Shown here in pieces: positions 4,757 to 29,416 of a DNA stretch of 64,000 nt. Made by a program: the position numbers and the translations under genes. The stretch is taken from NCBI GenBank assembly GCA_002339125.1, contig DDJQ01000105.1, forward strand, positions 127 through 64,126. The letters run 5' to 3'. The notes under the pieces were generated by a model, which had not been told where the DNA came from, ran no database searches, and saw only the letters and a list, made by a program, of their open reading frames with translations. This DNA is from Alteromonadaceae bacterium UBA2620. GTDB lineage: Bacteria > Pseudomonadota > Gammaproteobacteria > Enterobacterales > Alteromonadaceae. Position 1 is the stretch's first letter; each line of letters starts with the position of its first letter.

Positions 4757-5335
4757 CTAATCAAAGGCAATCGCCATAACAGCACTACGCGCAGCTTCAT
4801 AACCGGCAGAGTCTAAATCGGTAAAATCCTGAACATGAAAACTGAGTAGTTGCTGCTGATATATCATGCAGTACATCTCGCCATACAGCTCAACATTGTT
4901 CTCGGTACTGCGCCCGGTCCAGCGGATCCGCACGGCAGGAACTCCGTCAATCGAAACTGTTTCTATGGCAGACGTAGAAAAATTATCCCGGCGACGCTTC
5001 ACGCCCTCTAAAAACTGCATCAGGTATTGTTTGGAAAAAGCGATTTGCCTAGCCTGATTAAGTTCAGGTATACCATCTGGCGGCGTAAACAACGTCAGCT
5101 GTAGCAGCGTGCTCTTGTCACTATCGTCGTGACGGCGGGTAAACCCAACGGCTGAGAAGGCCTCGCTGGGCGCTTTCATTACCGGCCCCTCAAAACCTTC
5201 GGGAACCTTAATATCCCCTGAGCCAAAGTCGTAAGCGCTCGCACTCAGACTAAGCACAAACAGAACACCACACCAAATAAGGCGACACACATGACTTCGC
5301 AGCTTTACCACCGGCTTCAACCTTTTTATTATCAT
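4757..5335 (-). CDS. Hypothetical secreted protein
   Basis: An internal Met gives the signal peptide MIIKRLKPVV..LFVLSLSASAYD. It is the last gene of the activator / REC-GGDEF operon. Confidence 0.5.
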   Translation of the reverse strand: MIIKRLKPVVKLRSHVCRLIWCGVLFVLSLSASAYDFGSGDIKVPEGFEGPVMKAPSEAFSAVGFTRRHDDSDKSTLLQLTLFTPPDGIPELNQARQIAFSKQYLMQFLEGVKRRRDNFSTSAIETVSIDGVPAVRIRWTGRSTENNVELYGEMYCMIYQQQLLSFHVQDFTDLDSAGYEAARSAVMAIAFD

Positions 5336-5397
5336 TGACTTAACGTCAGAGTAGCAGATGTTTCCGGTAAGTTGACCATTTTTGTTCGGCGTATATT

Positions 5398-6444
5398 CTA
5401 CACCCGACCAATCACACAATTTCTGCCACCGTGTTTGGCTTCGTAAAGCAGTCCGTCAGCGCGACCGACCAGGCTGGTGAGGTCATCATTTTTCTGTAGC
5501 TCGGTAACGCCGAAACTCGCCGTAACGTTGCTGTTTAACACTTTGCTGTCAAATTTTATTGCGGCGATGGATTTTCTTAAGCGATCAATTATTGCTTTTG
5601 CATTTTGCAATTTGCATTCGGGCAGTATGATGCAAAACTCCTCGCCGCCAATGCGTCCTACCATATCCACCTTGCGCAACTCCAGTTCCACAACCGCGCA
5701 AACGGCTTGCAGCACCTTATCCCCAGCCTGATGGCCAAAGCTATCGTTAATCCGCTTAAAAAAATCGATATCAAAATAAGCGATGCTCATGGTGCAGTTG
5801 TAACGCCTGCACCGGCTGATCTCGTTTTCAAGTAACGAAAAAATGTGGCGGCGGTTAGCAATACCGGTAAGCTCATCAAAATGTGCCTGCCGGCTTAGCG
5901 TTTCCTGGGTTTTAATCAATCGTCTGCGCATTTCAGCAATCCTTGTCATGGCGCGTACTTTCGCCAGTAAGGTAATGCTGTCGATGGGCTTAGTCAGGTA
6001 GTCGTCAGCGCCACATTCTATCCCCATAGCAATGCTTTCCGGGGCATGCTGGCCACTTAAAAAGATAATAGGCTGCCATTCCAGAAAACTGTCTGACTCC
6101 AGTTCCCGTATTTGTGTCGCCAACTGATATCCATTGATATCAGGCATCTGAATATCCATCAGGATAAGGTCTATACTGTCCTGGGTGGTTTGCAAATAGT
6201 CGAGTGCTGCTTGTGCATCACAAGCCTCGATAACCAGTAAGCCAAACCGTTCCAGCATAGCTTTAAGCAAGGCACGCTCTGTTGCCGAGTCATCCACCAC
6301 CAGTACGTTAAGCGGTTCCGCAAAGGAGATTTTGCTTTGTATACTGGTTAGTGGAGTTTCTATTTGTTTTGTAATGTTCACGCAGACTCCCAAAATGCCA
6401 ACTACCCGTTTAGCCAATATTTCACCGGATTCTGCAAGTAACAT
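5398..6444 (-). CDS. Response regulator receiver + GGDEF diguanylate cyclase
   Basis: REC domain (VLVVDDSATER..LILMDIQMPDINGYQL). GGDEF domain with the active site GGEEF and an RxxD I-site (RKVD) five residues upstream. Confidence 0.85.
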   Translation of the reverse strand: MLLAESGEILAKRVVGILGVCVNITKQIETPLTSIQSKISFAEPLNVLVVDDSATERALLKAMLERFGLLVIEACDAQAALDYLQTTQDSIDLILMDIQMPDINGYQLATQIRELESDSFLEWQPIIFLSGQHAPESIAMGIECGADDYLTKPIDSITLLAKVRAMTRIAEMRRRLIKTQETLSRQAHFDELTGIANRRHIFSLLENEISRCRRYNCTMSIAYFDIDFFKRINDSFGHQAGDKVLQAVCAVVELELRKVDMVGRIGGEEFCIILPECKLQNAKAIIDRLRKSIAAIKFDSKVLNSNVTASFGVTELQKNDDLTSLVGRADGLLYEAKHGGRNCVIGRV

Positions 6445-6478: not shown

Positions 6479-7882
6479 CTAACCCGCCGAATCCCAACTC
6501 ACCTTCTTTCTGTATATTGTTGAAGGGCTGACATCCAGCAGTTCAGCCGCTTTAGGAATGTTGCCATTGCAATATGCAATAGCAGACTCGATGGCTTCTC
6601 GCTCGGTCACCGCAAGTGGCTGAATTTTCACTTCTGAGCTGGCAAATACCTGTGGTGTCGGAGGTTCTGCCGCCGGCGAGGTTGCCTTCTGACTAACAGC
6701 GATATTGTTTAAGGGGTGAGGGAGATGCTGGCTTTCAACCATTTTTGCATTATGCAATACCACAATATTCTGAATCACATTTTGCAGTTGCCTTACATTG
6801 CCAGGCCAGTCGTAATCGAGAAACAGCTGTTTAACCTCCTCGCTGAGGCCGACAAACTCTTTATTTTCCTCAGTAGCAAATTGCTTAAGAAAGTATTCTG
6901 CGATGGCCAGTGTATCCTCGCCACGCTCTGCCAGTCGGGGCAGATGGATGGGAATAACCTGTAACCGGTAGTACAGATCTTCGCGAAAACGTCCGGCTTT
7001 AACTTCTTCCAGCGGATTTTTATTGGTGGCACACACAAAACGAATATCAACGCTGATTTCTTTGTCACTGCCCACCGGTTGAAACTTCCCGGTTTGCAAA
7101 AAGCGCAGTAGCTTGGTTTGCAGATCCATGTCCATCTCGGCAATTTCATCGAGGAACAGGGTGCCACCATCCGCCTGGGTAGCCACGCCATCCCGTGCTT
7201 TCTGAGCACCGGTAAACGCCCCTTTAATATGACCAAATATCTCGCTTTCCATTAACTCCCGGGGAATAGCGCCACAGTTAAGTGCGATAAACAGGCCTGG
7301 CTGACGCGGGCTTTGATCGTGGATAGCACGAGCACAAACCTCTTTACCGGTACCACTTTCACCGGTAATAAACACCGTCGCCCGGCTTGGTGCTGCGGCT
7401 TCGATTATTTTATAAATAGCCTGCATAGGCAGGCTGCTGCCAATAAAGCCCTGGTATTCAGAACGGGAAAAGGTATTTTGCAACGTTTGTAGCTGCTGAC
7501 TGAGGGCAATTTGTTTTAGCGCATTTTTTACTGTGGTAATCAAACGTTTACCGTCAAACGGCTTTTCAATAAAGTCCAGCGCGCCCAGGCGCATAACTTC
7601 TACCACAGTATCAATTGCATTTTGCGAAGTGATGATCACCACTTCAATATGTGGGTATTCGCTTTTTATCCATTCCAGTAAATCCATCCCTTTGATATCG
7701 GGGAGTCCCAAATCCAGCAACACCAGGCTCGGCTCATGATTGGCCACTAAATACTTGGTCTCCGCCCCATTGCCTGCAGTCAGTATTTCCACTTTCTCGT
7801 TGCGCAGATACTGCTGATAAAGCGTATTCAGCGACGTGGAATCTTCCACAATCAGCACTTTCTTCACTGACATACTCGCCAT
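6479..7882 (-). CDS. Sigma-54-dependent response regulator (NtrC family, LuxO/SypG-like bEBP)
   Basis: REC domain, then an AAA+ domain with GESGTGKE and GAFTGA, then a C-terminal Fis-type HTH (ELLDVSPSTIYRK). A GGAGGG RBS precedes the ATG. Confidence 0.9.
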   Translation of the reverse strand: MASMSVKKVLIVEDSTSLNTLYQQYLRNEKVEILTAGNGAETKYLVANHEPSLVLLDLGLPDIKGMDLLEWIKSEYPHIEVVIITSQNAIDTVVEVMRLGALDFIEKPFDGKRLITTVKNALKQIALSQQLQTLQNTFSRSEYQGFIGSSLPMQAIYKIIEAAAPSRATVFITGESGTGKEVCARAIHDQSPRQPGLFIALNCGAIPRELMESEIFGHIKGAFTGAQKARDGVATQADGGTLFLDEIAEMDMDLQTKLLRFLQTGKFQPVGSDKEISVDIRFVCATNKNPLEEVKAGRFREDLYYRLQVIPIHLPRLAERGEDTLAIAEYFLKQFATEENKEFVGLSEEVKQLFLDYDWPGNVRQLQNVIQNIVVLHNAKMVESQHLPHPLNNIAVSQKATSPAAEPPTPQVFASSEVKIQPLAVTEREAIESAIAYCNGNIPKAAELLDVSPSTIYRKKVSWDSAG

Positions 7883-8081: not shown

Positions 8082-8096
8082 TGGCACCCTACTTGC
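8082..8096 (+). promoter_or_regulatory. Sigma-54 promoter TGGCAC-CCTAC-TTGC(T)
   Basis: Exact -24 GG / -12 GC spacing, 47 bp before the ATG at 8143. Confidence 0.7.
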
Positions 8097-8142
8097 TCTT
8101 ACTTCTGCATTCTAATTAATAGACGTATTCGCAGAGAAGCTT

Positions 8143-9381
8143 ATGACACCCCAGTCACCTCACTCAGAAGCATTTGCCAGTGAAACCGCCGAACGGTGCG
8201 GAAATGTGCTGTTAGTCGATGACAATGCGGCCGACCGGATGCTGTTAAAAGCCATGCTCGAACAGCTTGGCTACCATATCTGGGAGGCCGAAGAACTGCT
8301 CACCCGCAAGCATTTTGATATGGTGCTGAGCGACTGGATGATGCCAGAAATGTCCGGTCTGGAACTGTGCGAACGTATCTCCCGGCGATTTGAAAATAAG
8401 CCTTACATTATCCTTATCACCGGGCGCAACGAGTCCAACGACCTGATCCACGGTATTGAATCCGGTGCTGATGACTTTCTCACCAAACCCTTTAACCGCG
8501 ATGAACTGCGGGTTCGGTTGCAGGCAGGCTCCCGGGTCGCCAGACTGCAACGTAAACTACTTGAGCAAAACCTGATCCTTGTTCGTCACCTGCACAAGCA
8601 AAATAAACTGGTTCAGCAAAACAAACAGGAATTAACACTTGCGGCCAGGGTACTGATGGCCAGTTTGCCGCAAGCTGTGAATGTTTACCGTAATTCGGTG
8701 GAGGTTTACGGCAGGCTGAAACCGGCTAATACACTGGGCGGTGACGTGCTGAATCACTTTATGCTGGACGAACATCATCTGGCGTTTTACCTGATTGATG
8801 TCGTCGGGCACGGCGTCTCAGCGGCACTCAATGCGTTTTTGCTATCGAAAACCCTTATCGTCGACGACGAAAAACAGTCTATTTTGTACAAGGATCAGCA
8901 ATTACGCTCACCAGGCGAGGTAGCGGCGGCGCTGAACGCGCAGTTTTTCGACCCGCAATCCACTTCTCAGTATTTCACCATGGTGTACGGAGTACTAAAT
9001 GTGGAATCGGGAGAAGGCCGGTTCTGTCAGGCAGGTAGTCCGTCGCCAATCATTTGCAGCCCTAATGGTGAGTGCGAAAATGCTGGTAATGGCGGCTTTC
9101 CGGTGGGGTTAATTGATAGCGCCACCTTCGATGAGTACTCGTTCAGGTTACAGCCGGGGCAACGTCTGTTTATTTTTTCCGATGGTTTTGTGGAGCTCGA
9201 TCCGCACAACTGCCCCGGCCAGCAGCATCGCTTCAACGAACTGCTTGGCACCACTGCTAAACAACCGCTGGCTGAGGCCATTTCTACCTGCTACGAACAA
9301 ACTGCTCAATGGATAGAACAAAGCGATCAGCTCGATGATATGTCGATGCTAGCCATTCAGATGCGGGAGGCTTCAGAGTGA
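8143..9381 (+). CDS. Response regulator receiver + PP2C (SpoIIE/RsbU-type) serine phosphatase
   Basis: N-terminal REC domain (VLLVDDNAADR..SDWMMPEMSG..TKP). The C-terminal PP2C features include GGDV..., YLIDVVGHGVSAAL, FSDGF and DDMSMLA. Confidence 0.85.
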   Translation: MTPQSPHSEAFASETAERCGNVLLVDDNAADRMLLKAMLEQLGYHIWEAEELLTRKHFDMVLSDWMMPEMSGLELCERISRRFENKPYIILITGRNESNDLIHGIESGADDFLTKPFNRDELRVRLQAGSRVARLQRKLLEQNLILVRHLHKQNKLVQQNKQELTLAARVLMASLPQAVNVYRNSVEVYGRLKPANTLGGDVLNHFMLDEHHLAFYLIDVVGHGVSAALNAFLLSKTLIVDDEKQSILYKDQQLRSPGEVAAALNAQFFDPQSTSQYFTMVYGVLNVESGEGRFCQAGSPSPIICSPNGECENAGNGGFPVGLIDSATFDEYSFRLQPGQRLFIFSDGFVELDPHNCPGQQHRFNELLGTTAKQPLAEAISTCYEQTAQWIEQSDQLDDMSMLAIQMREASE

Positions 9382-9821
9382 TAAAAGCCCGTGCCCGCAA
9401 CCAGTCCAGTCAGATTTATGCTGATTACACCATCAGCCGCATCGACCGTGAAACCCGCAGCAGCCTGTCTGACCGCCAGCTTAACGCTTTCCGGGATGCC
9501 ATTATTGCCAGTCAGAGTGGCTCTCGCCACCAGATAGACTGCAGGTTCACTGTACCGCTGTTTCTGGCCCGTTTTTATGTGGTTCTGCTGATAGGTCGGG
9601 ATCGCCGTAAACAAACCCGGTTACAGGAACTGCGCCGCAATCAGTGGGGTAACGTACAGCTGGCGCCGGTGCTGTCTTTCATCCTGCTAAGTCTGTTGAT
9701 TAGTCTGTTGTGGTTCGCGCTGTTTCTGGCCATGTACTGGCTTAAGCGCGAACTGGGTATCGACCTGCTTGAAAACTTTCATTTGGCCGACTTACTGCCT
9801 GCAGGACAGTCCAATGAATAG
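9378..9821 (+). CDS. Hypothetical membrane protein
   Basis: GTGA overlap with the upstream stop. Two or three hydrophobic segments. No known motif. Confidence 0.5.
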   Translation: MIKARARNQSSQIYADYTISRIDRETRSSLSDRQLNAFRDAIIASQSGSRHQIDCRFTVPLFLARFYVVLLIGRDRRKQTRLQELRRNQWGNVQLAPVLSFILLSLLISLLWFALFLAMYWLKRELGIDLLENFHLADLLPAGQSNE

Positions 9822-10755
9822 TAAATTGCCGCTGATATTGTTCACTTTGCGTCTGCTGCCTTTCTGGCTGGCAATTTTACTGCTGTATGGCTGCGCCACT
9901 CAGGAACATGTAATTAACGCGCCTTATCAGCCGCACAGCGCTACGCTGGAAAACTATCGCACTCAGCCTCACCAACGGGTACATGATGTATTCAGCCCGG
10001 TGCGTTTACAAACTAAAGCTGCGGAGCAACACCTGCAGGTAAAAATCGACAACCTGCTGGTGTTAATCGATACCAGCCTGGATAAGTTAGCGCCAACGCC
10101 TTATTCGGCGACCTTTTTATCAGCCTATGAAGCCCTGCACCGGTTTATTCACAGCACACCCGCGCTGCCCTTCGAAACCAGCGTGTTTGAATTTGGCGCA
10201 GCCGCCAGTGACCTTGAAAGCCTGAGTTTTGATGCCCAGGCGCAAAACCTGGCGCAGTTGCACCCGCGGTTTGCCTTAAAACCGCTTGATCTGCATCTTG
10301 AAAAACGCCAGCGTTTACCCTCCTTAGGCAAGCGCGATCTGGCCGGCGCCCTGGATACCTTAACCGCTCAGCACTGGCGGTTTGATCAACCACTTACTTT
10401 GCTTATCATCGCGCCCTGGCAGCAATTAAATACACACTCCTTACGCGCACTAAAGATGTTTAAAAAGCGCATGGCAATTCATCAGGGCGTGTGTGTTTAC
10501 CTGGTTGGCATAGGCGCCGAGTACTCTCGCTCACTGGCTGATAATGCTCATGAATGTGGCTTTTCGGTATCAGCGCAGTGGATAGCCCAACCAGCTGAAA
10601 TGGCCCATTTTGTTGAGCGCGTTATGTATACATTTCCGGCCGACAGCGACAACGACGGTATCTACGATTTTGCCGATCGCTGCCCCGCCACACGCCCCGG
10701 CCGGATAGTAAACCGTCATGGCTGTTATCAGTTTGCTGACACAAGGAGACCCTGA
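9814..10755 (+). CDS. Lipoprotein ending in a thrombospondin type-3-like Ca-binding motif (no OmpA_C domain)
   Basis: LLYGC lipobox after the ATG at 9814, which overlaps the upstream stop. The C-terminal DSDNDGIYDFADRCP resembles the TSP3 repeat found in front of OmpA-like domains. Confidence 0.55.
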   Translation: MNSKLPLILFTLRLLPFWLAILLLYGCATQEHVINAPYQPHSATLENYRTQPHQRVHDVFSPVRLQTKAAEQHLQVKIDNLLVLIDTSLDKLAPTPYSATFLSAYEALHRFIHSTPALPFETSVFEFGAAASDLESLSFDAQAQNLAQLHPRFALKPLDLHLEKRQRLPSLGKRDLAGALDTLTAQHWRFDQPLTLLIIAPWQQLNTHSLRALKMFKKRMAIHQGVCVYLVGIGAEYSRSLADNAHECGFSVSAQWIAQPAEMAHFVERVMYTFPADSDNDGIYDFADRCPATRPGRIVNRHGCYQFADTRRP

Positions 10756-14662: not shown

Positions 14663-14677
14663 TGGCACTGTGTTTGC
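14663..14677 (+). promoter_or_regulatory. Sigma-54 promoter TGGCAC-TGTGT-TTGC(T)
   Basis: Exact -24/-12 spacing, 23 bp after the wzz stop and 97 bp before the flippase ATG. Confidence 0.65.
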
Positions 14678-14734
14678 TCTGTTAAGTCTAAGACTGAACA
14701 GGGCCAACCGATTGATGCTGAAACCGGGCATTAA

Positions 14735-14773: not shown

Positions 14774-16099
14774 ATGCAAATGCTCCCCATGCTGAAAGTG
14801 CTGTTTACCCGCTCCGTTGGCCTTGGCTTACAGCTGCTGCTAACGCTGGTAATGGGTCGCTACCTTGGTGCCGCCGGGGTAGGGCAATTTACCCTGTACA
14901 ATACCTGGATGGTCACCCTGGGCTGTGTGGGCGATATGGGCCTGCCAACAGTGGCCCTGCGGAATGTGTCGGTAAGCGAAGAGCGCAGACAGTACAAGCA
15001 AATATTTGCCTATATTACCCAGGCACTCGCCAGACTGCTTATTTACGGCGCTCTGGCCGCTGTAGTACTTATTACGGCTGCCGATTACTTTGCCCATTTA
15101 GCCACTGCTGATGCTACGCTGCTGTCGCTTTTTCAACTGGCGGTTGGCGCAGCGGTTGTCTTCATCCTGATGCGGGTGTTGTCTGAAACCTTGAAAGGGC
15201 TGGGCTACATCAACCTCGCCTTTACCATCGACACCTCACTGCTGCCACTGCTGTTACTGCTGGTAATGGGCGTAAGCTGGCTATTTGATTCGTCGCTTTC
15301 GGTGTTTCAACTGATCGCTTCACACATTACCTTTACGGTGCTGATAGTCGTCCTGCTGGCCACCGTTTTCTTTGTTATTCTGCGCCGAGCACTGGCAGCC
15401 TCCCCCACGACGTTGCCAACCAGTTCATCGCCTCATCAGCCAGACAGTTTGTTTTCACGACGTCTGGTACCGGTCTGGATTGGTGGTTGTTTGGGGATGT
15501 TAAGTCTGAACCTGCCAGTGCTGTTTTTACCGCTGTATGCCGACGCCGAGGAAATCGGCATTTTTGGCGTCAGTTACCGACTGATGCTTGCCGGGACATC
15601 GGTACTCACAACCCTCGCATCCTATTACGGCCCTGTATTTGCCAGAGCTTATGCCAATCAGGATTGTGCCCGGTTAAAGCAAAGTCTCAAGCATTCACAA
15701 AAAGTCTCGTTACTGGTTTACCTGCCGTTTTTCCTGCTTTTTACATTGTTCTCTGAGCCACTGCTGGCGTTATTTGGCGATGAATTTACCGCCGGCGCCT
15801 CGCTGTTAACCATCATGGTGTTTGGCCAGCTGATTAATACATCCACCGGACTGGTAGGCATCATGCTAAATATGATCCATCGCGAGAAAGAAGAATTTAT
15901 TATTCAGCTCAGTAACCTGGTGATTACCGTGGTGCTGATTAATGTCCTCGGCACCCTGTACGGCGTGGCCGGCATTGCCGCCGCCTGTGCAATCAGCATT
16001 GGTCTGAAAAACGTGATGTCGTATATCGCGGCCCAGCACTATCTGAGCCTGTCTGACTACCCTTTACCTGTGAAGGAAGCTAACCATGAAACCGCTTGA
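14774..16099 (+). CDS. Polysaccharide flippase (Wzx/MOP superfamily)
   Basis: Multi-pass membrane protein of 441 aa with Wzx-like topology, positioned inside the EPS cluster. Confidence 0.8.
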   Translation: MQMLPMLKVLFTRSVGLGLQLLLTLVMGRYLGAAGVGQFTLYNTWMVTLGCVGDMGLPTVALRNVSVSEERRQYKQIFAYITQALARLLIYGALAAVVLITAADYFAHLATADATLLSLFQLAVGAAVVFILMRVLSETLKGLGYINLAFTIDTSLLPLLLLLVMGVSWLFDSSLSVFQLIASHITFTVLIVVLLATVFFVILRRALAASPTTLPTSSSPHQPDSLFSRRLVPVWIGGCLGMLSLNLPVLFLPLYADAEEIGIFGVSYRLMLAGTSVLTTLASYYGPVFARAYANQDCARLKQSLKHSQKVSLLVYLPFFLLFTLFSEPLLALFGDEFTAGASLLTIMVFGQLINTSTGLVGIMLNMIHREKEEFIIQLSNLVITVVLINVLGTLYGVAGIAAACAISIGLKNVMSYIAAQHYLSLSDYPLPVKEANHETA

Positions 16100-17012
16100 T
16101 TTCCTGATTATCGGCGCGCAAAAATCCGGTACCACCTCGTTGTTTAAATACCTTAATCAGCACCCGGATATTGCCATGCCGGCGGATAAAGAAGCGCCCT
16201 ATTTTACTAATGACGAGCTCTACAGCGCTGGCTGGCAACATTACCTGGGCAACTATTTTACCGGCTATGACCAAGAGCTGCTCTGGGGTACAGCCAGCCC
16301 TCAATACATGAGTGACCTGCGCGCAGCAGAGCGCATAACCCGGGACCTGCCGAACACCCGGCTGATTGCCATTTTACGCAACCCTATTGAGCGCGCTTAT
16401 TCACACTATTTAATGCAAAAAAGGCGAGGCCTGGAAGAGCGCTCCTTCGACTCAGCGCTCGACACGCTGTTGCTTCAGCAAAGCCTGAATCATGCCCGCG
16501 CCAACCAGCCGGTGTTTAATGCCACCATGAACTATGAGGATGAATCCGGACATTACCTTGTGCTTGGCGAATACGGTCGAATCCTTAAAGCCTACCGCCA
16601 TTACTTTGAGCGCGGGCAAATGCTGGTGATATTTATGGATGAACTCACCGGTCAGCCCCATCAAACCGTCGCCAGAGTGCTGGAATTTATTGGCGCCAAC
16701 GATGAAAGCCTGCCGGATAATGTTGGTAAGGTTTACCACCAGGGTGGCAGTAAGCAGTTTATTCCTAACGCCTGGCGCAATGTGCTGAAAACTAATAGTG
16801 CTTTCCGGGCAGTCTGGGATTGCGTTCCCGAACGCACTAAAAGCAGTATCCGCTACTGGTACGATCAAAAAAACGTCCGCAAAGCCAGTGGGCAGGAAGG
16901 CCCGTCAGAAATCGCTAAGCAACGGCTGGCAGACTTCTATCGCAATGATATGGTTCAACTGCAAAGTCTGACTAATCAGGCCGTGCCCTGGAGCGAATTT
17001 AGCGGCGGATAA
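16086..17012 (+). CDS. PAPS-dependent sulfotransferase family protein
   Basis: A 5'-PSB loop (IIGAQKSGTTSL) and a 3'-PB motif (RLIAILRNPIERAYSHY). Confidence 0.8.
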   Translation: MKPLDFLIIGAQKSGTTSLFKYLNQHPDIAMPADKEAPYFTNDELYSAGWQHYLGNYFTGYDQELLWGTASPQYMSDLRAAERITRDLPNTRLIAILRNPIERAYSHYLMQKRRGLEERSFDSALDTLLLQQSLNHARANQPVFNATMNYEDESGHYLVLGEYGRILKAYRHYFERGQMLVIFMDELTGQPHQTVARVLEFIGANDESLPDNVGKVYHQGGSKQFIPNAWRNVLKTNSAFRAVWDCVPERTKSSIRYWYDQKNVRKASGQEGPSEIAKQRLADFYRNDMVQLQSLTNQAVPWSEFSGG

Positions 17013-21416: not shown

Positions 21417-21461
21417 ATTGATACCTCAAATGCATAATAACTTGCTGTAACAAGCGAGATA

Positions 21462-21476
21462 GCAACCAACATGCCA
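21462..21476 (-). promoter_or_regulatory. Sigma-54 promoter (minus strand) TGGCAT-GTTGG-TTGC(T)
   Basis: The reverse complement of GCAACCAACATGCCA has exact spacing. It lies 46 bp upstream of the ATG at 21416. Confidence 0.65.
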
Positions 21477-21583: not shown

Positions 21584-21698
21584 TGCCCTGACCACCTCCG
21601 CACTGGCGCAGTTATTGAATACCACACCAGCATGACTCGCACCGGCATAACCGGTGTTGCTGATCAGCGTTTATCGTTCACCATCGCGGAGACAAGTT

Positions 21699-22274
21699 AT
21701 GACTGAGAGTTTTGCACGCATACTCTGGCTTACCGGCTATGTGCTGTTAATCGGCCCGCCTCGCATTTTTGCTATCAGAGCCAAAGCCCACCGGGCAGGC
21801 AGTGAGTTGTCTAACTTACCCTTTGCCGTTCTTACAGGGATTGAAGTGATGGTGAGAGGCGGCCTGCTGCTATTATTAATGGTGGCTGTAGAAGGGTTGC
21901 TGGGTAAGGCACTCTATGAATATTTGCTGCTAGATTACTTTTTTCTCGCCCTGGTTTTCACCGGTGGCATGCACTTACTCATCTATCTCTATTGCTTTTC
22001 ATCCCGTGGGAACAGGCCGCCCCCTATGCGCACTTATCGAATAGGCAGAAACGCTTGTTATGCCGTGGCACCGGCGCTGGCGGCGAGCTTTATTGGCTTA
22101 CTCTGGCAGCACTACCATCAGCAGCCCCTACTCGGCGGTAATCTAATCCCTACGCTCTTTGCGTTATGCTGGACAGCCGGATTGATTGCCGGTTGCATCG
22201 AAGCATTGATAATAAGGCGTAAGCCCAAAGGCCTCGATGCCGTTCTGTCAGCCAGGATCTCACCAGAGCAATAA
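21699..22274 (+). CDS. Hypothetical multi-pass membrane protein
   Basis: Four or five hydrophobic helices. The ATG at 21699 is preferred over the GTG at 21654. No known motif. Confidence 0.45.
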   Translation: MTESFARILWLTGYVLLIGPPRIFAIRAKAHRAGSELSNLPFAVLTGIEVMVRGGLLLLLMVAVEGLLGKALYEYLLLDYFFLALVFTGGMHLLIYLYCFSSRGNRPPPMRTYRIGRNACYAVAPALAASFIGLLWQHYHQQPLLGGNLIPTLFALCWTAGLIAGCIEALIIRRKPKGLDAVLSARISPEQ

Positions 22275-22402: not shown

Positions 22403-22438
22403 TCTTATGTGGTTAATCCCTTTTTATCGAGAATAACC

Positions 22439-23203
22439 ATGTCACAGCAATGCCACACTAAAGAAAGCCATGAGCATCATCAGCGGCTTGCTGAAAAAAA
22501 GTTCATTGAGCAATACAAAGCTCACCACAGCTTTTTGCGTCGCACTGTTAAACACCTGCGTATTCATTACAAGCGTGCCATCTGGCGTATTGTTATTCAG
22601 TCATCCCGGCTGGTTAAACGCTGCCTGGATATCAGTTTGAGCCTGATAGCTATTTTGCTGCTACTGCCGGTATATATAATAACCGCGCTGGCGATTCAGT
22701 TGGATGCACCCGGCCCGGTTATCTTTAAACAGCAACGGGCTGGCCGCTTTGGCAAGGCTTTCACCATGTACAAATTCCGCTCGATGGTGGTCACGGCAGA
22801 GCACGACAAGCAAGCTTTGCTGGCCAGTAATGAGTCGGCTGCCGGGGTGATTTTTAAAATGAAACAGGACCCCAGAATCACCCGGGTAGGGCGCTTTATC
22901 AGAAAGTACTCCATCGATGAACTGCCTCAACTATTTAATGTTTTGCTCGGTGACATGTCGCTGGTCGGCCCACGGCCGCCCACGCTCAATGAAGTTGCTC
23001 AATACAGCCTGTCTGATCGTAAACGCCTGTATGTAGCCCCCGGTATCACCTGTATCTGGCAGGTGAGCGGGCGCTCTGAGATCGACTTTGCCGGGCAGGT
23101 AAAACTGGATGTGGCTTATATTCAAAGCCAGAGCTTATGGACAGATATCAGCATTTTACTAAAAACCATCCCGGCCGTACTGCTGGGTAAAGGAGCCTAC
23201 TGA
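22439..23203 (+). CDS. Polyprenyl-phosphate sugar phosphotransferase (bacterial sugar transferase, priming enzyme, SypR/WbaP C-terminal type)
   Basis: KR.LD + TM helix, GPVIFKQQR.G, KFRSM, DELPQLFNVLLGDMSLVGPRPP and PGITCIWQVSGRS. The ATG at 22439 is chosen because the promoter at 22388 would place the transcription start after the GTG at 22409. Confidence 0.85.
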   Translation: MSQQCHTKESHEHHQRLAEKKFIEQYKAHHSFLRRTVKHLRIHYKRAIWRIVIQSSRLVKRCLDISLSLIAILLLLPVYIITALAIQLDAPGPVIFKQQRAGRFGKAFTMYKFRSMVVTAEHDKQALLASNESAAGVIFKMKQDPRITRVGRFIRKYSIDELPQLFNVLLGDMSLVGPRPPTLNEVAQYSLSDRKRLYVAPGITCIWQVSGRSEIDFAGQVKLDVAYIQSQSLWTDISILLKTIPAVLLGKGAY

Positions 23204-24657
23204 TGTCAGCTAATTTTGTGCCTGTTTCCCACGCGGTACTCATTGAACCGCCCCTCGCTGCGCAGTTGCAGCCCTTGTTGGTAAGGCGTTCACTGGCAAT
23301 GCTTCCGGTTGCTGGTAAACCGATTATCCAGCTTTGGCTGGAGCATATAAACCTGATGGGCTTTACCTCGGTAAGCATTGGTGTACGCGACTTTCCACAG
23401 GCACTACGCAACCTGGTAGGCGACGGCTCACGCTGGGGGCTATCAATACAGGTTCATGCTCTCACCGATGCCATGACCTCAGAGGACGCCGTGCGGCACA
23501 TCGGGATGAATGGCCCGCAACTGGTAGCCAGCTTAAATGCTATTCCAACTCAGAATCTGTCATTTTTGCTGAGCCGGCTGACTCACCAAGACCCGGCAGA
23601 GCATGCGTCACTGAATAACGAGACCGCTGAACAACCACTGGTGTACCTGAGCAAAGATACTTCGGGTGAGTCGACTGTCGCAACCAGTAACAGTGCAGCA
23701 AGATTGCCATTGGCCAATCACCTGTTTCTTACCATAGACAGTGTGAAATCACTCTGGACAGTGAATGAGGCCCTGCTCAAACGCGAGATTTTTGATCCTC
23801 TGCATGCAGGGTTTGAGGTAGACCCGGGGATCTTTATGGAAACCGGTGTTCAGGTTAAGCCGGGGGTGAATATTCAGGGGCCGGTCAAGGTTGGTCAAAA
23901 CAGTTACATCGGCAAAAACGTTAAAATCAGAAAAAATGTCGTCATCGGCGCCGGTGTAATCATTGAAAGCGGCTGTGAACTGGAAAACACGGTTCTGCTG
24001 GATAATACCCATGTGGGTGCTGAGTCCAACCTGAGTAACGTGATCATCGATGGCGCATCGGTGTATTCACTGCAAGGCGATACCTTTACCTGGATTAACG
24101 ATCCCTCCATCCTCGGCTGGACCAATGCCGCAGAGGCAAGGGTATCACCACTGGAACGCCTGACAGCAGTATGCCTGCTAGTGGCTTTTATGCCGGCTCT
24201 GTTGGCTTTCGCCCTGCTGCAATGGGCTCGCCGCCGGCCGGTTTATCACAGCCACGATGGCTACGTGCCTGATGGCGTAAGCATCACCGGCCAGCAAAAA
24301 CACCAAAACCTTAAACTTAAAACCTTAACCAGTCTTAACGACCGGTTTAACAAACTGCCATGGCTGACTGAAGTCATTAAAGGCAATCTGCATCTGGTCG
24401 GAATCGGCCTGCCGTCGTCTTCGAACAGTACTTTTCCTGAGTGGGCCTACGAGTTACAAAACCGCCGCCCGGGGGTAATTAATCTGCACGACAGCCACCG
24501 CACCGCGTTAGCCGCAGAAACCAATTATGTTGAAGACCTTTATTATCTGAATCATCGCAATCGCCCGCGCAATCTGCTCATTCTGGTGCGTTGGGTATTT
24601 CAGCTTTGCACCGCAAGATTCAGTATTTCTAACCGCAAACATGAGGCAAGACTATGA
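23203..24657 (+). CDS. Three-domain protein: nucleotidyltransferase-like N-terminus (degenerate), left-handed beta-helix hexapeptide repeats, degenerate sugar-transferase-like C-terminus
   Basis: The N-terminus has MLPVAGKPIIQ but lacks the GxGTRL loop. The middle has hexapeptide repeats (VGQNSYIGKNVKIRKNVVIGAGVIIESGCELENTVL). The C-terminus has a TM helix, then LKLKTL, NKLPWLTEVIKGNLHLVGIGLP and PGVINLHDS in place of the KFRTM, DELPQL..G.MSLVGPRP and PGITG motifs. An ATGA overlap links it to the upstream transferase. Confidence 0.7.
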   Translation: MSANFVPVSHAVLIEPPLAAQLQPLLVRRSLAMLPVAGKPIIQLWLEHINLMGFTSVSIGVRDFPQALRNLVGDGSRWGLSIQVHALTDAMTSEDAVRHIGMNGPQLVASLNAIPTQNLSFLLSRLTHQDPAEHASLNNETAEQPLVYLSKDTSGESTVATSNSAARLPLANHLFLTIDSVKSLWTVNEALLKREIFDPLHAGFEVDPGIFMETGVQVKPGVNIQGPVKVGQNSYIGKNVKIRKNVVIGAGVIIESGCELENTVLLDNTHVGAESNLSNVIIDGASVYSLQGDTFTWINDPSILGWTNAAEARVSPLERLTAVCLLVAFMPALLAFALLQWARRRPVYHSHDGYVPDGVSITGQQKHQNLKLKTLTSLNDRFNKLPWLTEVIKGNLHLVGIGLPSSSNSTFPEWAYELQNRRPGVINLHDSHRTALAAETNYVEDLYYLNHRNRPRNLLILVRWVFQLCTARFSISNRKHEARL

Positions 24658-24989
24658 ATATTTCAGAAGTCGTCATTGAAGATACCGTGGTATTACGCTT
24701 AACCGGCAAGCTCGACGGCAGCGCCGTGGAACAATTATCGAATCAGGTGAAAGACGCCATCTGGTCGCGTCACAGCGCCGTTTTGATCAATATGCAGGGG
24801 GTTGAGTTTGTAGACTCCACCGGGCTTGGCCTGCTGGTGTTCTTATTCCGTCAGGCTAAGGAACAAAATACCGACTTCGCAATTTGTGCGCTATCGGCAC
24901 AGGCCCAGATGGTGTTTGAGATTACCCGTATGACCAAAATTTTTGTTGTCCACCCCAGTGAATCCGCTGCGTTGGCAGTATCGGCTTAA
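24654..24989 (+). CDS. STAS-domain anti-sigma-factor-antagonist-like protein (SypA/SpoIIAA-like)
   Basis: 111 aa. The motif VEFVDSTGLGLLV places the conserved phosphorylatable Ser at residue 55. ATGA overlap with the upstream gene. Confidence 0.85.
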   Translation: MNISEVVIEDTVVLRLTGKLDGSAVEQLSNQVKDAIWSRHSAVLINMQGVEFVDSTGLGLLVFLFRQAKEQNTDFAICALSAQAQMVFEITRMTKIFVVHPSESAALAVSA

Positions 24990-25022
24990 TTATTTTTCAG
25001 CACATGCACAGGCAGGTGACTT

Positions 25023-26618
25023 ATGACCAGCAAAGCCCTACTTACTCCTACCGTAATTAAGGACAACTACACGCCCATCCTTGGTATCCCCATCGATAAT
25101 CTGGATCTTGAGGAAACCACAGATGCCATTTTTGCCCTGTTGCAACAATATCCCCTGACTCAACGAGCGGGTTTTGTTGCCACCGTGAATGTCGATTTCC
25201 TGGTTAATGCCCATGCCTGGCTACCAGGGCAGTTACCCCGGCACCCGGAACTGCTCGATATTTTACGCAACGCCGACATCGTTACTGCCGATGGCATGCC
25301 GCTAGTGTGGCTTAGCCGGCTGCTGGGTAAATCTCTTAAACAGCGGGTCACCGGAGCTGACCTGGTGCCGGCACTGTGTAAGCGCGCGGCCAAAGAAAAC
25401 GCCTCTGTGTATTTACTGGGCGGGCGCGAGGAAATTGCGATCCAGGCTGCACAGAAGCTTCAGACCCAAAATCCCGGCCTTAACATAGCTGGCGTCAGCT
25501 CTCCCTTTGTGACCACAGAAGGCATTAATATCGACGATGAAGCCCAGGACCAGCTGGTTGTTGATGCGATTAACCAGGCAAAGCCCGACATTCTGTTTAT
25601 TGGCTTTGGCAATCCAAAACAGGAAATCTGGTTTCAGCGCAATAAACATAAGCTTCAGGTGCCGGTGTCTCTGGGAGTAGGCGGTACATTTGAATTTATC
25701 GTTGGCTCGGTGAGTCGGGCGCCGGTCTGGATGCAGCGCAGCGGTCTGGAATGGTTTTACCGTATAACGCAGGATCCTAAACGGCTCATCGGGCGTTATC
25801 TTACCGGCATTGCGAAACTCGGTGTAATGGCCGTGCCCATGCTGCTAAACAGCCGTATTGTTTTGCGCCAGGCACCGGGCAAGGATAATACCATTGCCGC
25901 TACGCAGGATAGCGATCACCCTATTGCCTATCCGGATATCTGCGCACTGAGTGCAGACCATTACAACCTTATTTGCTTACCGCAACACATTGATCGCTCC
26001 TGGGTACAGCGCAACGCTATTTTTATAGCCCAGATGCTCGACCAACAGCGTCCTCTGTTACTGGATTTCGCAGACGTCGAATACTTTGAACCCTGCACAG
26101 AGCACCTGTTCCTGCAGATGTTTCGCCACACCACTAATAACCATCAGCAAGTCTATATTGCCGGACTTAACCACCCACAACTTATCAGGCAGCTTAAGTC
26201 TTTCCGGGTTTATGACATGTTCCGTTTCAAGGTGTTTTCCTCTTTCGAGAAAATCCTGTTTTTGCTGGGTGATGAACAGGAAACCAGCTCTGTGCAATAC
26301 CAGAGTCGTGGCGGTATTTTCCATATTACCTTAACCGGAAGTGTGGAGGCGGATAGCGGTAATCTGCTGGACATTGAGACAATCACTAACACCGCTAAGG
26401 GAAGACCTTTATTGGTAAACTTCTCCAGAGTCAGCGCTATCGACAACCGCGGCCTGGCACTACTGGCCAAACTCAATAAACTGTGTGGTGATAAGCACCA
26501 ACAAATGCTGTTATTGGGCGTTAATGCCGGTATTCAACAGCGCTTCCAGGCGGCCGGCTTATTAAACGCCTTTAGCTTTGCCGAAACCCACGAGCAGGCT
26601 ATGTATTTACTGCGCTAA
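25023..26618 (+). CDS. WecB/TagA/CpsF-family (GT26) glycosyltransferase fused to two C-terminal STAS-like domains
   Basis: The GT26 core covers about aa 1-275 (VATVNVDF, TADGMPLVW, FGNPKQE.W, GVGGTFEF..G...RAP.WMQ..GLEW.YR). The C-terminal part contains LLVNFSRVSAIDNRGLALLAKLNKL...LLGVNAGIQQRF.AAGL, which is STAS-like with Asn in place of the phospho-Ser. Confidence 0.8.
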   Translation: MTSKALLTPTVIKDNYTPILGIPIDNLDLEETTDAIFALLQQYPLTQRAGFVATVNVDFLVNAHAWLPGQLPRHPELLDILRNADIVTADGMPLVWLSRLLGKSLKQRVTGADLVPALCKRAAKENASVYLLGGREEIAIQAAQKLQTQNPGLNIAGVSSPFVTTEGINIDDEAQDQLVVDAINQAKPDILFIGFGNPKQEIWFQRNKHKLQVPVSLGVGGTFEFIVGSVSRAPVWMQRSGLEWFYRITQDPKRLIGRYLTGIAKLGVMAVPMLLNSRIVLRQAPGKDNTIAATQDSDHPIAYPDICALSADHYNLICLPQHIDRSWVQRNAIFIAQMLDQQRPLLLDFADVEYFEPCTEHLFLQMFRHTTNNHQQVYIAGLNHPQLIRQLKSFRVYDMFRFKVFSSFEKILFLLGDEQETSSVQYQSRGGIFHITLTGSVEADSGNLLDIETITNTAKGRPLLVNFSRVSAIDNRGLALLAKLNKLCGDKHQQMLLLGVNAGIQQRFQAAGLLNAFSFAETHEQAMYLLR

Positions 26619-26638
26619 TCATGGTATCACCGGTGCGC

Positions 26639-29416
26639 TTAGCGCACCGGGGTAGCCTGTTCCGCACAATCCACCGCAGACTCATTCATTTCATCAAGCA
26701 CCTGCTGCGTTACCCGCAAGGAATCTTCGGTAATTCCCTCAAACAAGCCGACCAGAAAGGCAACTTCATCAGCCTTACCGGTAGCACATAAACTCTCAAT
26801 CGCTTTGGAGACTTCGTGCAGGCGCATATTGGCATGCGAGGCTGAAGAGCTCTTAATACTGTGCGCAGCAAATTCAATTTTTTCCAGATCACCCTGCTCA
26901 TTAGCCGCCAAAATCGTGTCGGCAATTTTGCGGGTTTCGCTGAGATACACTTCCAGTAATCTTGGCACAACTTCACGACTGGTATCGTAAATCAGTCGGT
27001 TGAGTACTTCATGGTCAAACAGCTTGTAACAATCAAACTCTTTACTCTCAACTACCGGTGTAACAACCGGACGTTCCACATTTAAACTACTTTGTGGTGA
27101 CATTTCAGCGGTCTCTTCCTGGTTAATGGGTACGCCAAGGCACCACTTGTTTATTTTTTCGAACAGGCATTTTTTAGTACAGGGTTTGCTCAGGTGATCG
27201 CGCATTCCTGATGCCAGAAAACGATTAATCTCGTTTTCCATGGAATGCGCAGTGAGCGCAACAATGGGGGTTTCGGCATTTAAGCCGCCAGCGCCGATAA
27301 TTTGCTGAGTCGCCGCAATACCATCCATTTCGGGCATCGAAATATCCATCAGAATGACATCAAACTGTTGCTCCTGACAAAGGTCACAGGCCTGCTTGCC
27401 ATTTTCGGCAAACACCAGTTGGATATCTTCTCTGATAAGCTGATTTTCTGCGATCAACCGGTTCGACTCGTTGTCTTCTGCCACCAGAACGCGACAGCCT
27501 TTAGGTAAGTGTAAATTGTCGTGTTTACTGACAGTGCGTAATGCGGCAATTTCGTCATCAGAGCAGTAGTTCAGCCGAATACTAAAGGAGAATTGCGCGC
27601 CTCCGCCGGAGCGATTGTTGCGGGCCGTAATGTGCCCTGACATTTTCTTAACCAGATTTTTGCAAATACTCAGACCTAATCCAGCCCCCGACCGCTGCCT
27701 GGAGGACGAATTGTCAGCCATGCTGAACTCGTCAAATAGTTGATCCTTAAAGGACTCGTCTATACCAATACCGCTATCGGTAACATCGCAAAGCAATTCA
27801 AAGGTTTCGTTATTGTGAGAAACCGCCGACAGCGAAATAGCAATACTGCCTTTATCGGTAAATTTAATCGCATTGTCTATCAGGTTGATAAGGATCTGAC
27901 GGATGCGCGTAAAGTCTCCGCAGATGTGCGCCGGCAACGCTGGTGAAACCTGGAACTGCAACGCAAGATTTTTCTCACTCGCTGCGGTTTGCATGATTCC
28001 GCGGGTACTGTCGATTAAGGATGCAGTACAAAACGGCTTTGGTGAAATCGTAAAGGTTCCGGCATTCATTCTGGACAAGTCCAGAATGCTGTTAATAATT
28101 TCCATTAACTGCGTGCCCGATGACATAGCCAGATGAATCAGCTTAAGTTGCTCCGGGTGAACATTATCTTCTTCCAGTAACTCAAGGATCCCCAGAACCG
28201 CATTCATCGGGGTACGAATTTCGTGACTCATAGTGGCCAGAAAACGCCCTTTGGCCTCACTGGCCTGCTCAGCCAGCACTCTGGCCTCTTTTAACTTGTT
28301 CACGTATTCCCTGCGCTCGCTGATGTCATTGAGCTCACAAACGTAAAGGTTTTCTTTTGCCTGTTCGCCTTTAATAACCGACGCATGGGCGTGGGCAGGA
28401 AAGTGACTATCATCGGCTTTAACAATGGTAACTTCTTTTGCCCAGTCACCCTTTGCATCCAGCGCATTCCACATCTGTTCCCTCACAGACTTGTCTTCAT
28501 CGTAGAACAGCCGCGTTGCCTTGAAGTTTTCCGGTAAGCCCTCATCAAAGCCCAGCGTAGATAAAAAAGCAGCATTAGCCTTAACGATTTTGGCTTCATG
28601 ATCGGCCACAAACATAGGAATATTAATGTTAAACACGCAACTGGCCAGCAGCGAGTCCATTTGCAAGCGCTTTTGTTCGGTGATGTCTCGGATAAACGCC
28701 GCAAAAAACACATCATTACCATTTTCTACCGTACAAATCGCTATTTCTATATTAAATTCATGGCCCTGCTTATGCAGGGCTACCAGCTCAATGCGCCGGT
28801 TAAGCAATTTGCTTTCTTTATTTTTATCAAACCGCCCCATGGCCGAATTGTGCATATGCCGGTAACGTTCAGGAATAATGGTGTCGCTAAGCTGTTTGCC
28901 GAGAATCTCTGCTTTCTGCCAGCCAAAAATTGCCTCGGCGTGAGTGTTAAAATCAATAATCTCACCGTCACTATTAGCGGTAACAATGGCATCGAGTGAT
29001 GAGTTCAGCAGCGCCCTGGACTTGGCTTCGCTGGAGGTATTGATCTCCAGAAGCTGCTTGTTTTGCTGACGGTTATACTCAGAAGTTTCACGACTCTCGC
29101 GTAATTGGTTTAGCACATCGTTATAACGCTCAACCAACAGGTCAGTGCGGGCATCGCCCACTTTGCTCAGCGGATGCAATCCCTCGATTCCGACACCAGA
29201 GAACTGTTCGTTAATTTTCTGCAGAGGCGAAAAACGGAGATAGCGGTAAACAAAAAATAAGGCCAAATTCATGGCCGCAGCAATCAAGCCCATTAACAAT
29301 AACCCGGTAAAATCCGTAGTTCCTCCTGTCATGGGTACAATCCAGGCCAGTAACGCCATGAAAACAACCAGGTTGAACAAAAATAGCGGGACTTTTATTT
29401 TGAATAAAGAAGACAC
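26639..29416 (-). CDS. Hybrid sensor histidine kinase (2 TM, PAS x2, HisKA, HATPase_c, REC, Hpt; SypF-like)
   Basis: H-box SHEIRTPMN, G-boxes DSGIGI and GAGLGLSI, REC domain VLVAEDNESNR..DVILMDISMPEMDG, and a C-terminal Hpt domain HSIKSSSASH. Confidence 0.9.
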   Translation of the reverse strand: MSSLFKIKVPLFLFNLVVFMALLAWIVPMTGGTTDFTGLLLMGLIAAAMNLALFFVYRYLRFSPLQKINEQFSGVGIEGLHPLSKVGDARTDLLVERYNDVLNQLRESRETSEYNRQQNKQLLEINTSSEAKSRALLNSSLDAIVTANSDGEIIDFNTHAEAIFGWQKAEILGKQLSDTIIPERYRHMHNSAMGRFDKNKESKLLNRRIELVALHKQGHEFNIEIAICTVENGNDVFFAAFIRDITEQKRLQMDSLLASCVFNINIPMFVADHEAKIVKANAAFLSTLGFDEGLPENFKATRLFYDEDKSVREQMWNALDAKGDWAKEVTIVKADDSHFPAHAHASVIKGEQAKENLYVCELNDISERREYVNKLKEARVLAEQASEAKGRFLATMSHEIRTPMNAVLGILELLEEDNVHPEQLKLIHLAMSSGTQLMEIINSILDLSRMNAGTFTISPKPFCTASLIDSTRGIMQTAASEKNLALQFQVSPALPAHICGDFTRIRQILINLIDNAIKFTDKGSIAISLSAVSHNNETFELLCDVTDSGIGIDESFKDQLFDEFSMADNSSSRQRSGAGLGLSICKNLVKKMSGHITARNNRSGGGAQFSFSIRLNYCSDDEIAALRTVSKHDNLHLPKGCRVLVAEDNESNRLIAENQLIREDIQLVFAENGKQACDLCQEQQFDVILMDISMPEMDGIAATQQIIGAGGLNAETPIVALTAHSMENEINRFLASGMRDHLSKPCTKKCLFEKINKWCLGVPINQEETAEMSPQSSLNVERPVVTPVVESKEFDCYKLFDHEVLNRLIYDTSREVVPRLLEVYLSETRKIADTILAANEQGDLEKIEFAAHSIKSSSASHANMRLHEVSKAIESLCATGKADEVAFLVGLFEGITEDSLRVTQQVLDEMNESAVDCAEQATPVR

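Follow-up and report, generated by a model that had tools for sequence, protein, structure and literature searches.

We analysed a 64-kb stretch of DNA from Alteromonadaceae bacterium UBA2620 (contig DDJQ01000105.1), the whole of which we call the window, taking the open reading frame (ORF) at 25023-26618 on the forward strand as the query gene. This gene, which has the sequence AGGTGA 6 nt ahead of its ATG, encodes a 531-residue protein in which four parts can be recognised: a complete glycosyltransferase of the GT26/TagA type that includes the C-terminal appendage of such enzymes, a disordered linker, and two STAS domains in tandem, STAS1 and STAS2. We refer to it as the GT26-STAS-STAS gene. 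It stands in an exopolysaccharide cluster, directly downstream of a gene for a free, single-domain STAS protein, and the features of the locus are collected in Table 1.

Table 1. Coordinates of the GT26-STAS-STAS gene, its parts and the features around it in the window.
Feature	Position	Strand	Description and basis
GT26-STAS-STAS gene	25023..26618	+	531 aa, ATG start; ORF, Pfam, NCBIfam, AlphaFold2 model
GT26 (TagA-like) catalytic core	25065..25775	+	Residues 15-251; PF03808, 7mpk alignment, Foldseek
Long helix	25776..25877	+	Residues 252-285, the end of the TagA C-terminal appendage; aligns with TagA ~220-243
Linker	25878..25934	+	Residues 286-304; disordered, poorly conserved; predicted local distance difference test score (pLDDT) <50 for 286-302
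STAS1, degenerate	25935..26276	+	Residues 305-418; phospho-site position Pro357, codon 26091-26093
STAS2	26277..26615	+	Residues 419-531; phospho-site position Asn475, codon 26445-26447; preceding D474 invariant
Free single-domain STAS protein	24654..24989	+	111 aa; Pfam STAS E 8.7e-18, TIGR00377 E 1.3e-21
Small phosphoglycosyl transferase (Bac_transf)	22409..23203	+	264 aa; Pfam E 2.6e-68, TIGR03025 E 5.7e-90
Fusion of NTP-transferase-like, left-handed beta-helix (LbH) and partial Bac_transf parts	23203..24657	+	484 aa; Pfam/NCBIfam; conserved neighbour
Receiver-PP2C/SpoIIE serine phosphatase (REC-PP2C)	8143..9381	+	412 aa; E 2.8e-33; without kinase domain
Hybrid sensor histidine kinase (PAS-HisKA-HATPase-REC-Hpt)	26639..29416	-	Convergent with the GT26 gene
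Sigma-54 response regulator	6479..7882	-	
Perfect sigma-54 -24/-12 box	8082..8097	+	TGGCACCCTACTTGCT; upstream of the REC-PP2C gene
Perfect sigma-54 -24/-12 box	14663..14678	+	TGGCACTGTGTTTGCT; upstream of the flippase gene

The N-terminal part of the protein is matched by the Pfam family Glyco_tran_WecG (PF03808) at residues 84-259, with an E-value of 2.8e-64 and 216.4 bits against a cut-off of 27.4, and by NCBIfam TIGR00696 of the WecB/TagA/CpsF superfamily, with an E-value of 6e-49 and 166.1 bits against a cut-off of 69. Residues 18-281 align with nearly the entire chain of Thermoanaerobacter TagA (7mpk, residues 5-243 of 244; E 5e-36). In an AlphaFold2 model of the full-length protein, built on the family alignment (mean pLDDT 84.8, predicted template modelling (TM) score 0.72), the core resembles TagA and leads into a long helix (252-283); after a disordered stretch at 286-302 come two alpha/beta modules, which take up approximately residues 307-416 and 423-530. 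When this model was compared with the PDB using Foldseek, the TagA/TarA structures 7mpk and 5wb4 came out at the top (E 5e-17, target-normalised TM score 0.93, root-mean-square deviation 1.6-1.9). The active site of TagA is formed by Thr37, Asn39, Asp65 (the proposed base), Arg83, Gln167 and Glu168, and its C-terminal appendage contributes Arg214, Arg221 and Arg224 (PMC6493773). In the 7mpk alignment the six active-site residues correspond to T54, N56, D90, R108, Q200 and E201 of the window protein; R214 and R221 of the appendage correspond to R247 and R254, and R224 to Y259, which adjoins an invariant arginine, R258. These catalytic and appendage positions are invariant or nearly so across 111 family members (alignment A3). 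Given that the catalytic residues of TagA are kept, the transferase of the window looks catalytically competent. By analogy its acceptor is probably a lipid-diphosphate-sugar, and the predicted activity of the phosphoglycosyl transferase encoded by an adjoining gene fits transfer onto a lipid-diphosphate-linked acceptor.

In TagA the appendage acts as a membrane tether, and the active site is completed solely in the monomeric, membrane-bound form of the enzyme (PMC6493773). The helix at residues 252-285 of the window protein contains R254, R258 and a hydrophobic stretch, with K265 nearly invariant and P272 invariant. Because a topology puzzle has been noted for All4160, a STAS-fused phosphoglycosyl transferase of Anabaena, we considered a transmembrane helix between the GT26 and STAS parts. 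The Kyte-Doolittle mean over 19 residues peaks at 1.55 at residue 263, which is borderline for a membrane segment, and the stretch concerned (260-281) holds K265 and aligns with the peripheral appendage of TagA. We rejected a transmembrane helix on these grounds and provisionally treat the stretch as an interfacial helix. The STAS pair starts about 20 residues past the segment that is homologous to the TagA appendage. Since it stands right behind this segment, it is in a good position to govern docking of the appendage, the oligomeric state or membrane engagement, and its position directly behind a catalytic, membrane-binding appendage suggests a concrete structural mechanism.

Both C-terminal modules are STAS domains. 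STAS2 is matched by Pfam STAS (PF01740) at residues 425-526 with an E-value of 1.2e-13 and 51.1 bits against a cut-off of 22.6. STAS1 taken alone scores 20.4 bits against the same profile (E 4.6e-4), which is slightly under the cut-off; among its counterparts in the family, 27 of 33 match Pfam STAS, the best of them at 1e-18. Comparison of the STAS1 and STAS2 profiles by hhalign returned a probability of 99.3% (E 7.8e-21), and the STAS1 profile matched SpoIIAA-type structures in the PDB at E-values of 1e-13 to 1e-11. STAS1 modelled alone reached a pLDDT of 90.9 and matched 4hyl (TM 0.85), RsbV (6m36) and SpoIIAA (1th8, TM 0.81). Likewise, SpoIIAA, RsbV and other STAS structures matched the full-length model in Foldseek with target-normalised TM scores of 0.80-0.85. 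The E-values for the domain assignments lie far below chance and the architecture is found again in hundreds of genomes; we have very little doubt about the three-domain design.

The family motif at the phospho-site is F-I/V-D-S-S-G-L in both modules. The window protein reads YFE-P357-CTEH in STAS1 and AID-N475-RGL in STAS2 and has no Ser or Thr at the D-S-x-G position, and the phosphorylatable serine that is a feature of SpoIIAA-, RsbV- and SypA-type antagonists is thus missing from both fused modules. Between the window protein and its Alteromonas lipolytica counterpart, identity amounts to 86% in the GT26 core, 82% in STAS1, 53% in STAS2 and 37% in the linker, which is about 5% identical to the remaining family. 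That STAS1 is 82% identical between two species indicates that this serine-less module is under strong constraint rather than decaying. The first-pass annotation of this DNA, made from the letters alone, had described a GT26 transferase followed by two tandem STAS modules, neither of them phosphorylatable. Pfam, profile and structure-model evidence agree with that description; AlphaFold2, Foldseek and profile comparison all give the C-terminal half a STAS fold, and the phospho-serine is indeed lost from both modules. The same annotation had placed a phosphorylatable STAS gene 34 bp upstream, of which the adjacency and the phosphorylatable serine (Ser55) stand, and the gap is corrected to 33 bp (24990-25022).

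The family was sampled with one genome per species, giving at least 580 relatives, and the best 80 loci were examined. A GT26 domain with two STAS matches was found in 71 of these 80 loci, and all of the best 120 protein matches contain both PF03808 and PF01740. The hosts include A. lipolytica, Halieaceae, Chromatiaceae, Contendobacter, many Desulfobacterota, Nitrospira, Verrucomicrobiota, Chloroflexota and Calditrichota; the A. lipolytica protein is 75% identical to that of the window and is encoded in a syntenic locus. Databases already carry a label for such proteins, 'WecB/TagA/CpsF family protein/anti-anti-sigma factor', and in the literature we found no paper describing a GT26-STAS architecture. 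The GT26-STAS-STAS design is thus common in nature and is one for which we found no published description: the earlier remark that it is undescribed holds for papers, and does not extend to rarity. Some members, about 685-700 residues long (e.g. in Candidatus Contendobacter), carry an added NUDIX hydrolase domain; these are P0013, P0017, P0018, P0046, P0053, P0057 and P0081 of our protein set, and L007 10001-12094.

Unlike the window protein, most members of the family have kept both serines. Of the 71 loci, 58 have the STAS1 serine and 65 the STAS2 serine, and 55 have Ser or Thr in both. Among these loci, the serine is absent from both modules only in the window clade (the window with A. lipolytica) and in a single Verrucomicrobiaceae genome. 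Since most members keep both serines, direct serine phosphorylation of the fused STAS is probably the family norm, and the window a derived exception. RsbW-type kinase genes occur in 20 of 37 loci with both serines versus 0 of 7 with the STAS1 serine lost, a correlation that is suggestive, these loci being dominated by two clades and not phylogenetically independent. For Anabaena PCC 7120, a 2026 publication describes a partner switch that acts directly on a sugar transferase: phosphorylation of the STAS domain of All4160 inhibits the enzyme, the REC-PP2C protein HenR activates it, Alr3423 is the kinase and an S74A substitution bypasses HenR, all on genetic evidence (PMC13555669; bioRxiv 10.64898/2026.04.08.717354). 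Given the serine retention in the family and this work in Anabaena, direct phospho-control of the enzyme's own STAS is the simplest reading for most members. By that analogy the STAS pair is probably a built-in partner-switch receiver, with the activity of the transferase set post-translationally by serine phosphorylation.

Partner-switch genes within 10 kb were counted in the 47 loci that extend at least 8 kb on each side. A free STAS gene was found in 26 of these, a PP2C gene in 25 and an RsbW-type kinase gene in 20; at least one of the three is present in 28 loci and all three in 18. In Desulfobacter vibrioformis (L003) the genes follow one another in the order hybrid kinase, Hpt, REC-PP2C, RsbW, STAS, phosphoglycosyl transferase, GT26-STAS-STAS, NTP/LbH, flippase, glycosyltransferases and Wza, and an equivalent arrangement is found in Thiorhodovibrio (L004) and in all Chloroflexus-type loci. 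We consider a functional link between the GT26-STAS-STAS family and partner-switch signalling to be likely. The first-pass annotation had suggested that the switch acts on a sugar transferase rather than on transcription; for the family this gains support from the 28 of 47 loci and from the All4160 precedent, and in the window itself the switch is incomplete, without an RsbW-type kinase in the 64 kb. The polysaccharide enzymes encoded beside the transferase also recur. Within 300 bp of the GT26 gene, 26 of the 71 loci have a Bac_transf phosphoglycosyl transferase gene and 28, across phyla, a gene for the NTP/LbH/partial Bac_transf fusion.

Three changes mark the lineage of the window: both fused serines are gone, there is no local kinase gene, and the free STAS gene stands directly before the transferase gene. 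The window and A. lipolytica, the latter being 1 of the 71 other loci, are alone in having a free STAS gene no more than 300 bp from the GT26 gene. The free STAS protein retains the canonical D54-S55-T-G motif and is 90% identical to its A. lipolytica counterpart, and the first 4 nt of its gene are at the same time the last 4 of the gene upstream. In phmmer comparisons it resembles the canonical fused STAS domains of other family members (1e-18 to 1e-13) on a par with other free STAS proteins. A word-index homolog search with the free STAS protein returned two near-identical proteins, the index being weak on short divergent proteins. Other clades depart from the family norm in different ways. 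In a sister clade (L002, L009) STAS1 is degenerate and the STAS2 serine is intact, and a gene for a Metallophos (PF00149) phosphoesterase lies between the free STAS and GT26 genes (L002 3248-4210, and the equivalent position in L009); its product may act on the STAS protein as an alternative phosphatase. A Halieaceae clade (Congregibacter, NOR5-3; L032, L039, L046, L050, L054, L057) has a degenerate STAS1 motif, e.g. HIALNAQQ, and E-S in place of D-S in STAS2. Within 10 kb of these genes we detected no partner-switch gene, and the clade may have relaxed or changed its phospho-control independently.

The window cluster encodes Wza-like, Wzz, flippase, sulfotransferase, Wzy-like, GT2, GT1, DUF6492 and phosphoglycosyl transferase proteins, and its regulators are the sigma-54 response regulator, a REC-GGDEF protein, the REC-PP2C phosphatase and the convergent hybrid kinase. 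Judged by predicted domain content, on which it was compared with the Vibrio fischeri syp locus, the locus looks syp-like. The catalytic motifs of the REC-PP2C phosphatase (DVVGHG, FSDG, DD) are intact, and hybrid kinases recur as neighbours in related loci. Two perfect sigma-54 boxes (TGGCAC-N5-TTGCT) are present in the window against 0.15 expected by chance, and they fit control by the sigma-54 response regulator. No RsbW-type kinase was found in the 64 kb by tblastn with four RsbW-type proteins of related loci or by an iterated hidden Markov model search (--max) of all window ORFs of at least 60 residues, where the best match was the hybrid kinase at E 0.011, and Pfam scans of 30 larger window ORFs gave no HATPase_c_2 domain.

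Several further features of the cluster were recorded. A sigma-54 box with one mismatch, at 21461-21476 (-), precedes a DUF6492/GT1/GT2 operon. The GC-rich inverted repeat CACCGGTGCGC-TTA-GCGCACCGG at 26621-26651 is located in the 20-bp gap between the convergent GT26 and hybrid kinase genes, overlapping their ends, and may be a bidirectional terminator. In the 484-residue fusion, an NTP-transferase-like N-terminus (18-85) is followed by a left-handed beta-helix at about residues 200-290, and a Bac_transf domain, of which only the C-terminal half is present (profile positions 87-176 of 179), takes up residues 381-467; similar fusions are encoded at L003 11575-13089, L006 11612-13105 and L007 18439-19914. 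Next to the sigma-54 regulator gene is a gene for a REC-GGDEF diguanylate cyclase, and three cluster ORFs of 220, 328 and 206 residues have no Pfam match; these four genes occupy 5398-6444 (-), 4757-5419 (-), 9769-10755 (+) and 21654-22274 (+). In L004 and L007 the Wza-like gene is preceded by positional counterparts of the 328-residue ORF; for the 206-residue ORF there is one in A. lipolytica (L001 6679-7251). The sulfotransferase gene of the window lies at 16086-17012 (+), and related clusters contain one or two sulfotransferase genes, together with a fused ATP sulfurylase/APS kinase in L005 (L005 4434-7109 and 9003-10004; L004 9040-9987). By analogy with the synechan (xss) cluster of cyanobacteria, to which the STAS-fused transferase XssP belongs, this suggests that the product is a sulfated exopolysaccharide.

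We propose that the small phosphoglycosyl transferase would put the first sugar on the lipid carrier, supplying a lipid-linked acceptor to the GT26 enzyme, which would add the next sugar, in the second step of an exopolysaccharide pathway that is syp-like and whose product is probably sulfated. In TagA, addition of this next sugar is the first committed step. Control would begin with the hybrid histidine kinase, which would govern the REC-PP2C phosphatase; the phosphatase would in turn dephosphorylate the free STAS protein at Ser55, and the unphosphorylated free STAS would bind the non-phosphorylatable tandem STAS of the transferase. This docking would alter the contact of the appendage with the active site or the membrane and so turn the committed-step transferase on, with transcription of the cluster driven separately, from the sigma-54 promoters. 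Phospho-control, binding between free and fused STAS, and an effect on activity are all steps that we infer beyond the gene inventory, and we put the probability of the docking mechanism at roughly 0.38. In its favour are the conservation of the free STAS protein and of STAS1 between the two species, the intact motifs of the phosphatase, and a free STAS gene that stands beside the GT26 gene in this clade only. The wider statement that serine-less, enzyme-fused tandem STAS domains serve as dedicated docking receivers for a free phosphorylatable STAS, so that a SypA-like output would consist of STAS-STAS binding on a committed-step glycosyltransferase, we regard as doubtful.

A number of points weigh against docking. 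The partner switch is incomplete within the window, which lacks an RsbW-type kinase, and because of this phosphorylation of Ser55 has to be assumed. About 40% of the long-flank loci have no partner-switch gene within 10 kb. Vibrio syp loci have a free STAS protein, SypA, and are not known to encode a GT26-STAS protein, so that such free STAS proteins would have other targets. By analogy with All4160 S74A, a serine-less module could also be merely locked 'on'. Finally, the free STAS protein bears no resemblance to the fused modules of its own window, which fits divergence after loss of function equally well; its pattern of similarity, like the fused STAS of other members and unlike that of its own neighbour, does not discriminate docking from the rival explanations.

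The closest of these rivals is that regulation has been lost, in which case the tandem STAS would be locked in the unphosphorylated 'on' state and serve only as a structural or assembly module that could, for instance, mediate oligomerisation or join the phosphoglycosyl transferase and the NTP/LbH protein in a membrane complex, with sigma-54 transcription taking over and the free STAS acting elsewhere, as SypA does. The disappearance of both serines and of the local kinase gene, the constitutive function of All4160 S74A, the fast evolution of STAS2 and the perfect sigma-54 boxes with a sigma-54 regulator in the cluster all fit such a loss, as do the many family loci that have no partner-switch genes nearby. 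A lineage that had abandoned regulation would, however, have had to keep STAS1 and the free STAS protein at 82% and 90% identity between two species and retain a REC-PP2C gene with intact motifs, and in the window clade alone the free STAS gene has come to lie directly ahead of the GT26 gene. We judge loss of regulation to be rather unlikely.

A kinase could also be the partner of the fused modules. An unlinked RsbW-type kinase would bind the non-phosphorylatable STAS pair tightly, because phosphorylation cannot release it, and so hold the transferase off; dephosphorylated free STAS would compete for the kinase and free the enzyme, the transferase taking the place that a sigma factor has in the classical scheme. 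RsbW-type kinase genes do adjoin GT26-STAS-STAS genes in 20 of the 47 long-flank loci, the free STAS and the canonical fused STAS belong to the same subtype by phmmer and could share a binding partner, and observations on SypA S56A suggest that a non-phosphorylatable STAS remains kinase-bound (PMC4517449). We nonetheless find it unlikely that the fused pair serves as a kinase decoy, since the 64 kb encode no such kinase, the phospho-site loop of STAS1 has been rewritten to YFEPCTEH and the fused modules of the window no longer look like the free STAS. Far less probable still is a ligand sensor, in which the STAS pair would bind a nucleotide, a nucleotide sugar or an anion related to the sulfur donor and tune the transferase to precursor supply without involvement of the free STAS. 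The structural matches include STAS domains from SLC26 transporters, SpoIIAA is reported to bind GTP (a reference cited in PMC8256260), and sulfotransferases are encoded in the cluster and its relatives, with ATP sulfurylase/APS kinase in L005; we identified no binding motif in the pair, however, and the phospho-serines and the kinase and phosphatase neighbours across the family point to phospho-control instead.

Little is understood of how bacteria turn exopolysaccharide production and biofilm formation on and off after transcription, and what SypA-type STAS proteins act on has been an open question for more than 10 years. The first partner-switch-like module demonstrated on a sugar transferase dates from only 2026, and concerns cyanobacteria and another class of enzyme. 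The present analysis indicates a second and much wider family, committed-step GT26 enzymes with two STAS domains, in Gammaproteobacteria, Desulfobacterota, Chloroflexota, Nitrospirota, Verrucomicrobiota and Calditrichota, that is large, unstudied and experimentally tractable. The lineage of the window amounts to a natural 'experiment': the two phospho-sites have disappeared and the free STAS gene has come to stand beside the transferase gene. This allows direct phosphorylation to be tested against STAS-STAS docking in a culturable relative, Alteromonas lipolytica JW12 (GCA_001758465.1). If docking is correct, the family shows a path from a directly phosphorylated enzyme to control through a separate STAS messenger. 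The first-pass annotation had suggested that this arrangement could supply an output for SypA-type proteins; our results offer an analogy to that system and give no answer for SypA itself. A paper on RtmR, which we considered for the target of SypA, was set aside as having no bearing on that target.

Comparison with known systems places the window protein between several of them. It shares with TagA/TarA and WecG the fold (target-normalised TM 0.93), the active-site residues and an appendage with catalytic arginines. However, TagA ends at its appendage, after 244 residues, whereas the window protein continues with a linker and two STAS domains, and its setting is an exopolysaccharide cluster in place of teichoic acid or enterobacterial common antigen synthesis. 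The SpoIIAA/SpoIIAB and RsbV/RsbW systems have in common with it the STAS fold (TM 0.8-0.85) and, at the level of the family, the association with RsbW-type kinases and PP2C phosphatases; their output is a sigma factor, whereas in the window no sigma factor takes part in the switch, the STAS domains are fused to an enzyme and their canonical site is non-phosphorylatable. The syp system of V. fischeri has a free STAS protein with its serine at nearly the same position (Ser56, against Ser55 in the window), a PP2C response regulator and a hybrid kinase, as well as a sigma-54 regulator with sigma-54 promoters (PMC4517449, PMC12369376). Its phosphatase SypE differs in having an N-terminal kinase domain, which the phosphatase of the window lacks. 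The output of Vibrio SypA lies below transcription, as is proposed for the window, with a target that is described as unknown (PMC4517449, PMC12369376, PMC8256260).

For regulation by binding alone, an example is MlaB, a STAS protein that is reported to regulate the ABC ATPase MlaF in this manner (PMC7367683). As in the mechanism proposed for the window, a non-phosphorylated STAS binds directly to an enzyme; the partner is unrelated, however, the STAS is free rather than fused, and partner-switch genes are not part of the system. The nearest counterparts are All4160 of Anabaena and XssP of Synechocystis, the latter a STAS-fused phosphoglycosyl transferase of a sulfated-polysaccharide pathway (PMC13555669). 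These are first-step enzymes of the Bac_transf class with a single, N-terminal, phosphorylatable STAS, whereas the window encodes a second-step GT26 enzyme with a C-terminal, serine-less tandem, a separate free STAS protein and, within the 64 kb, no RsbW-type kinase that we could find. Common to both are a STAS domain fused to a polysaccharide sugar transferase, a REC-PP2C protein in the system and, as proposed for the window, control below transcription, and the pathway of XssP is matched in the window cluster by a sulfotransferase.

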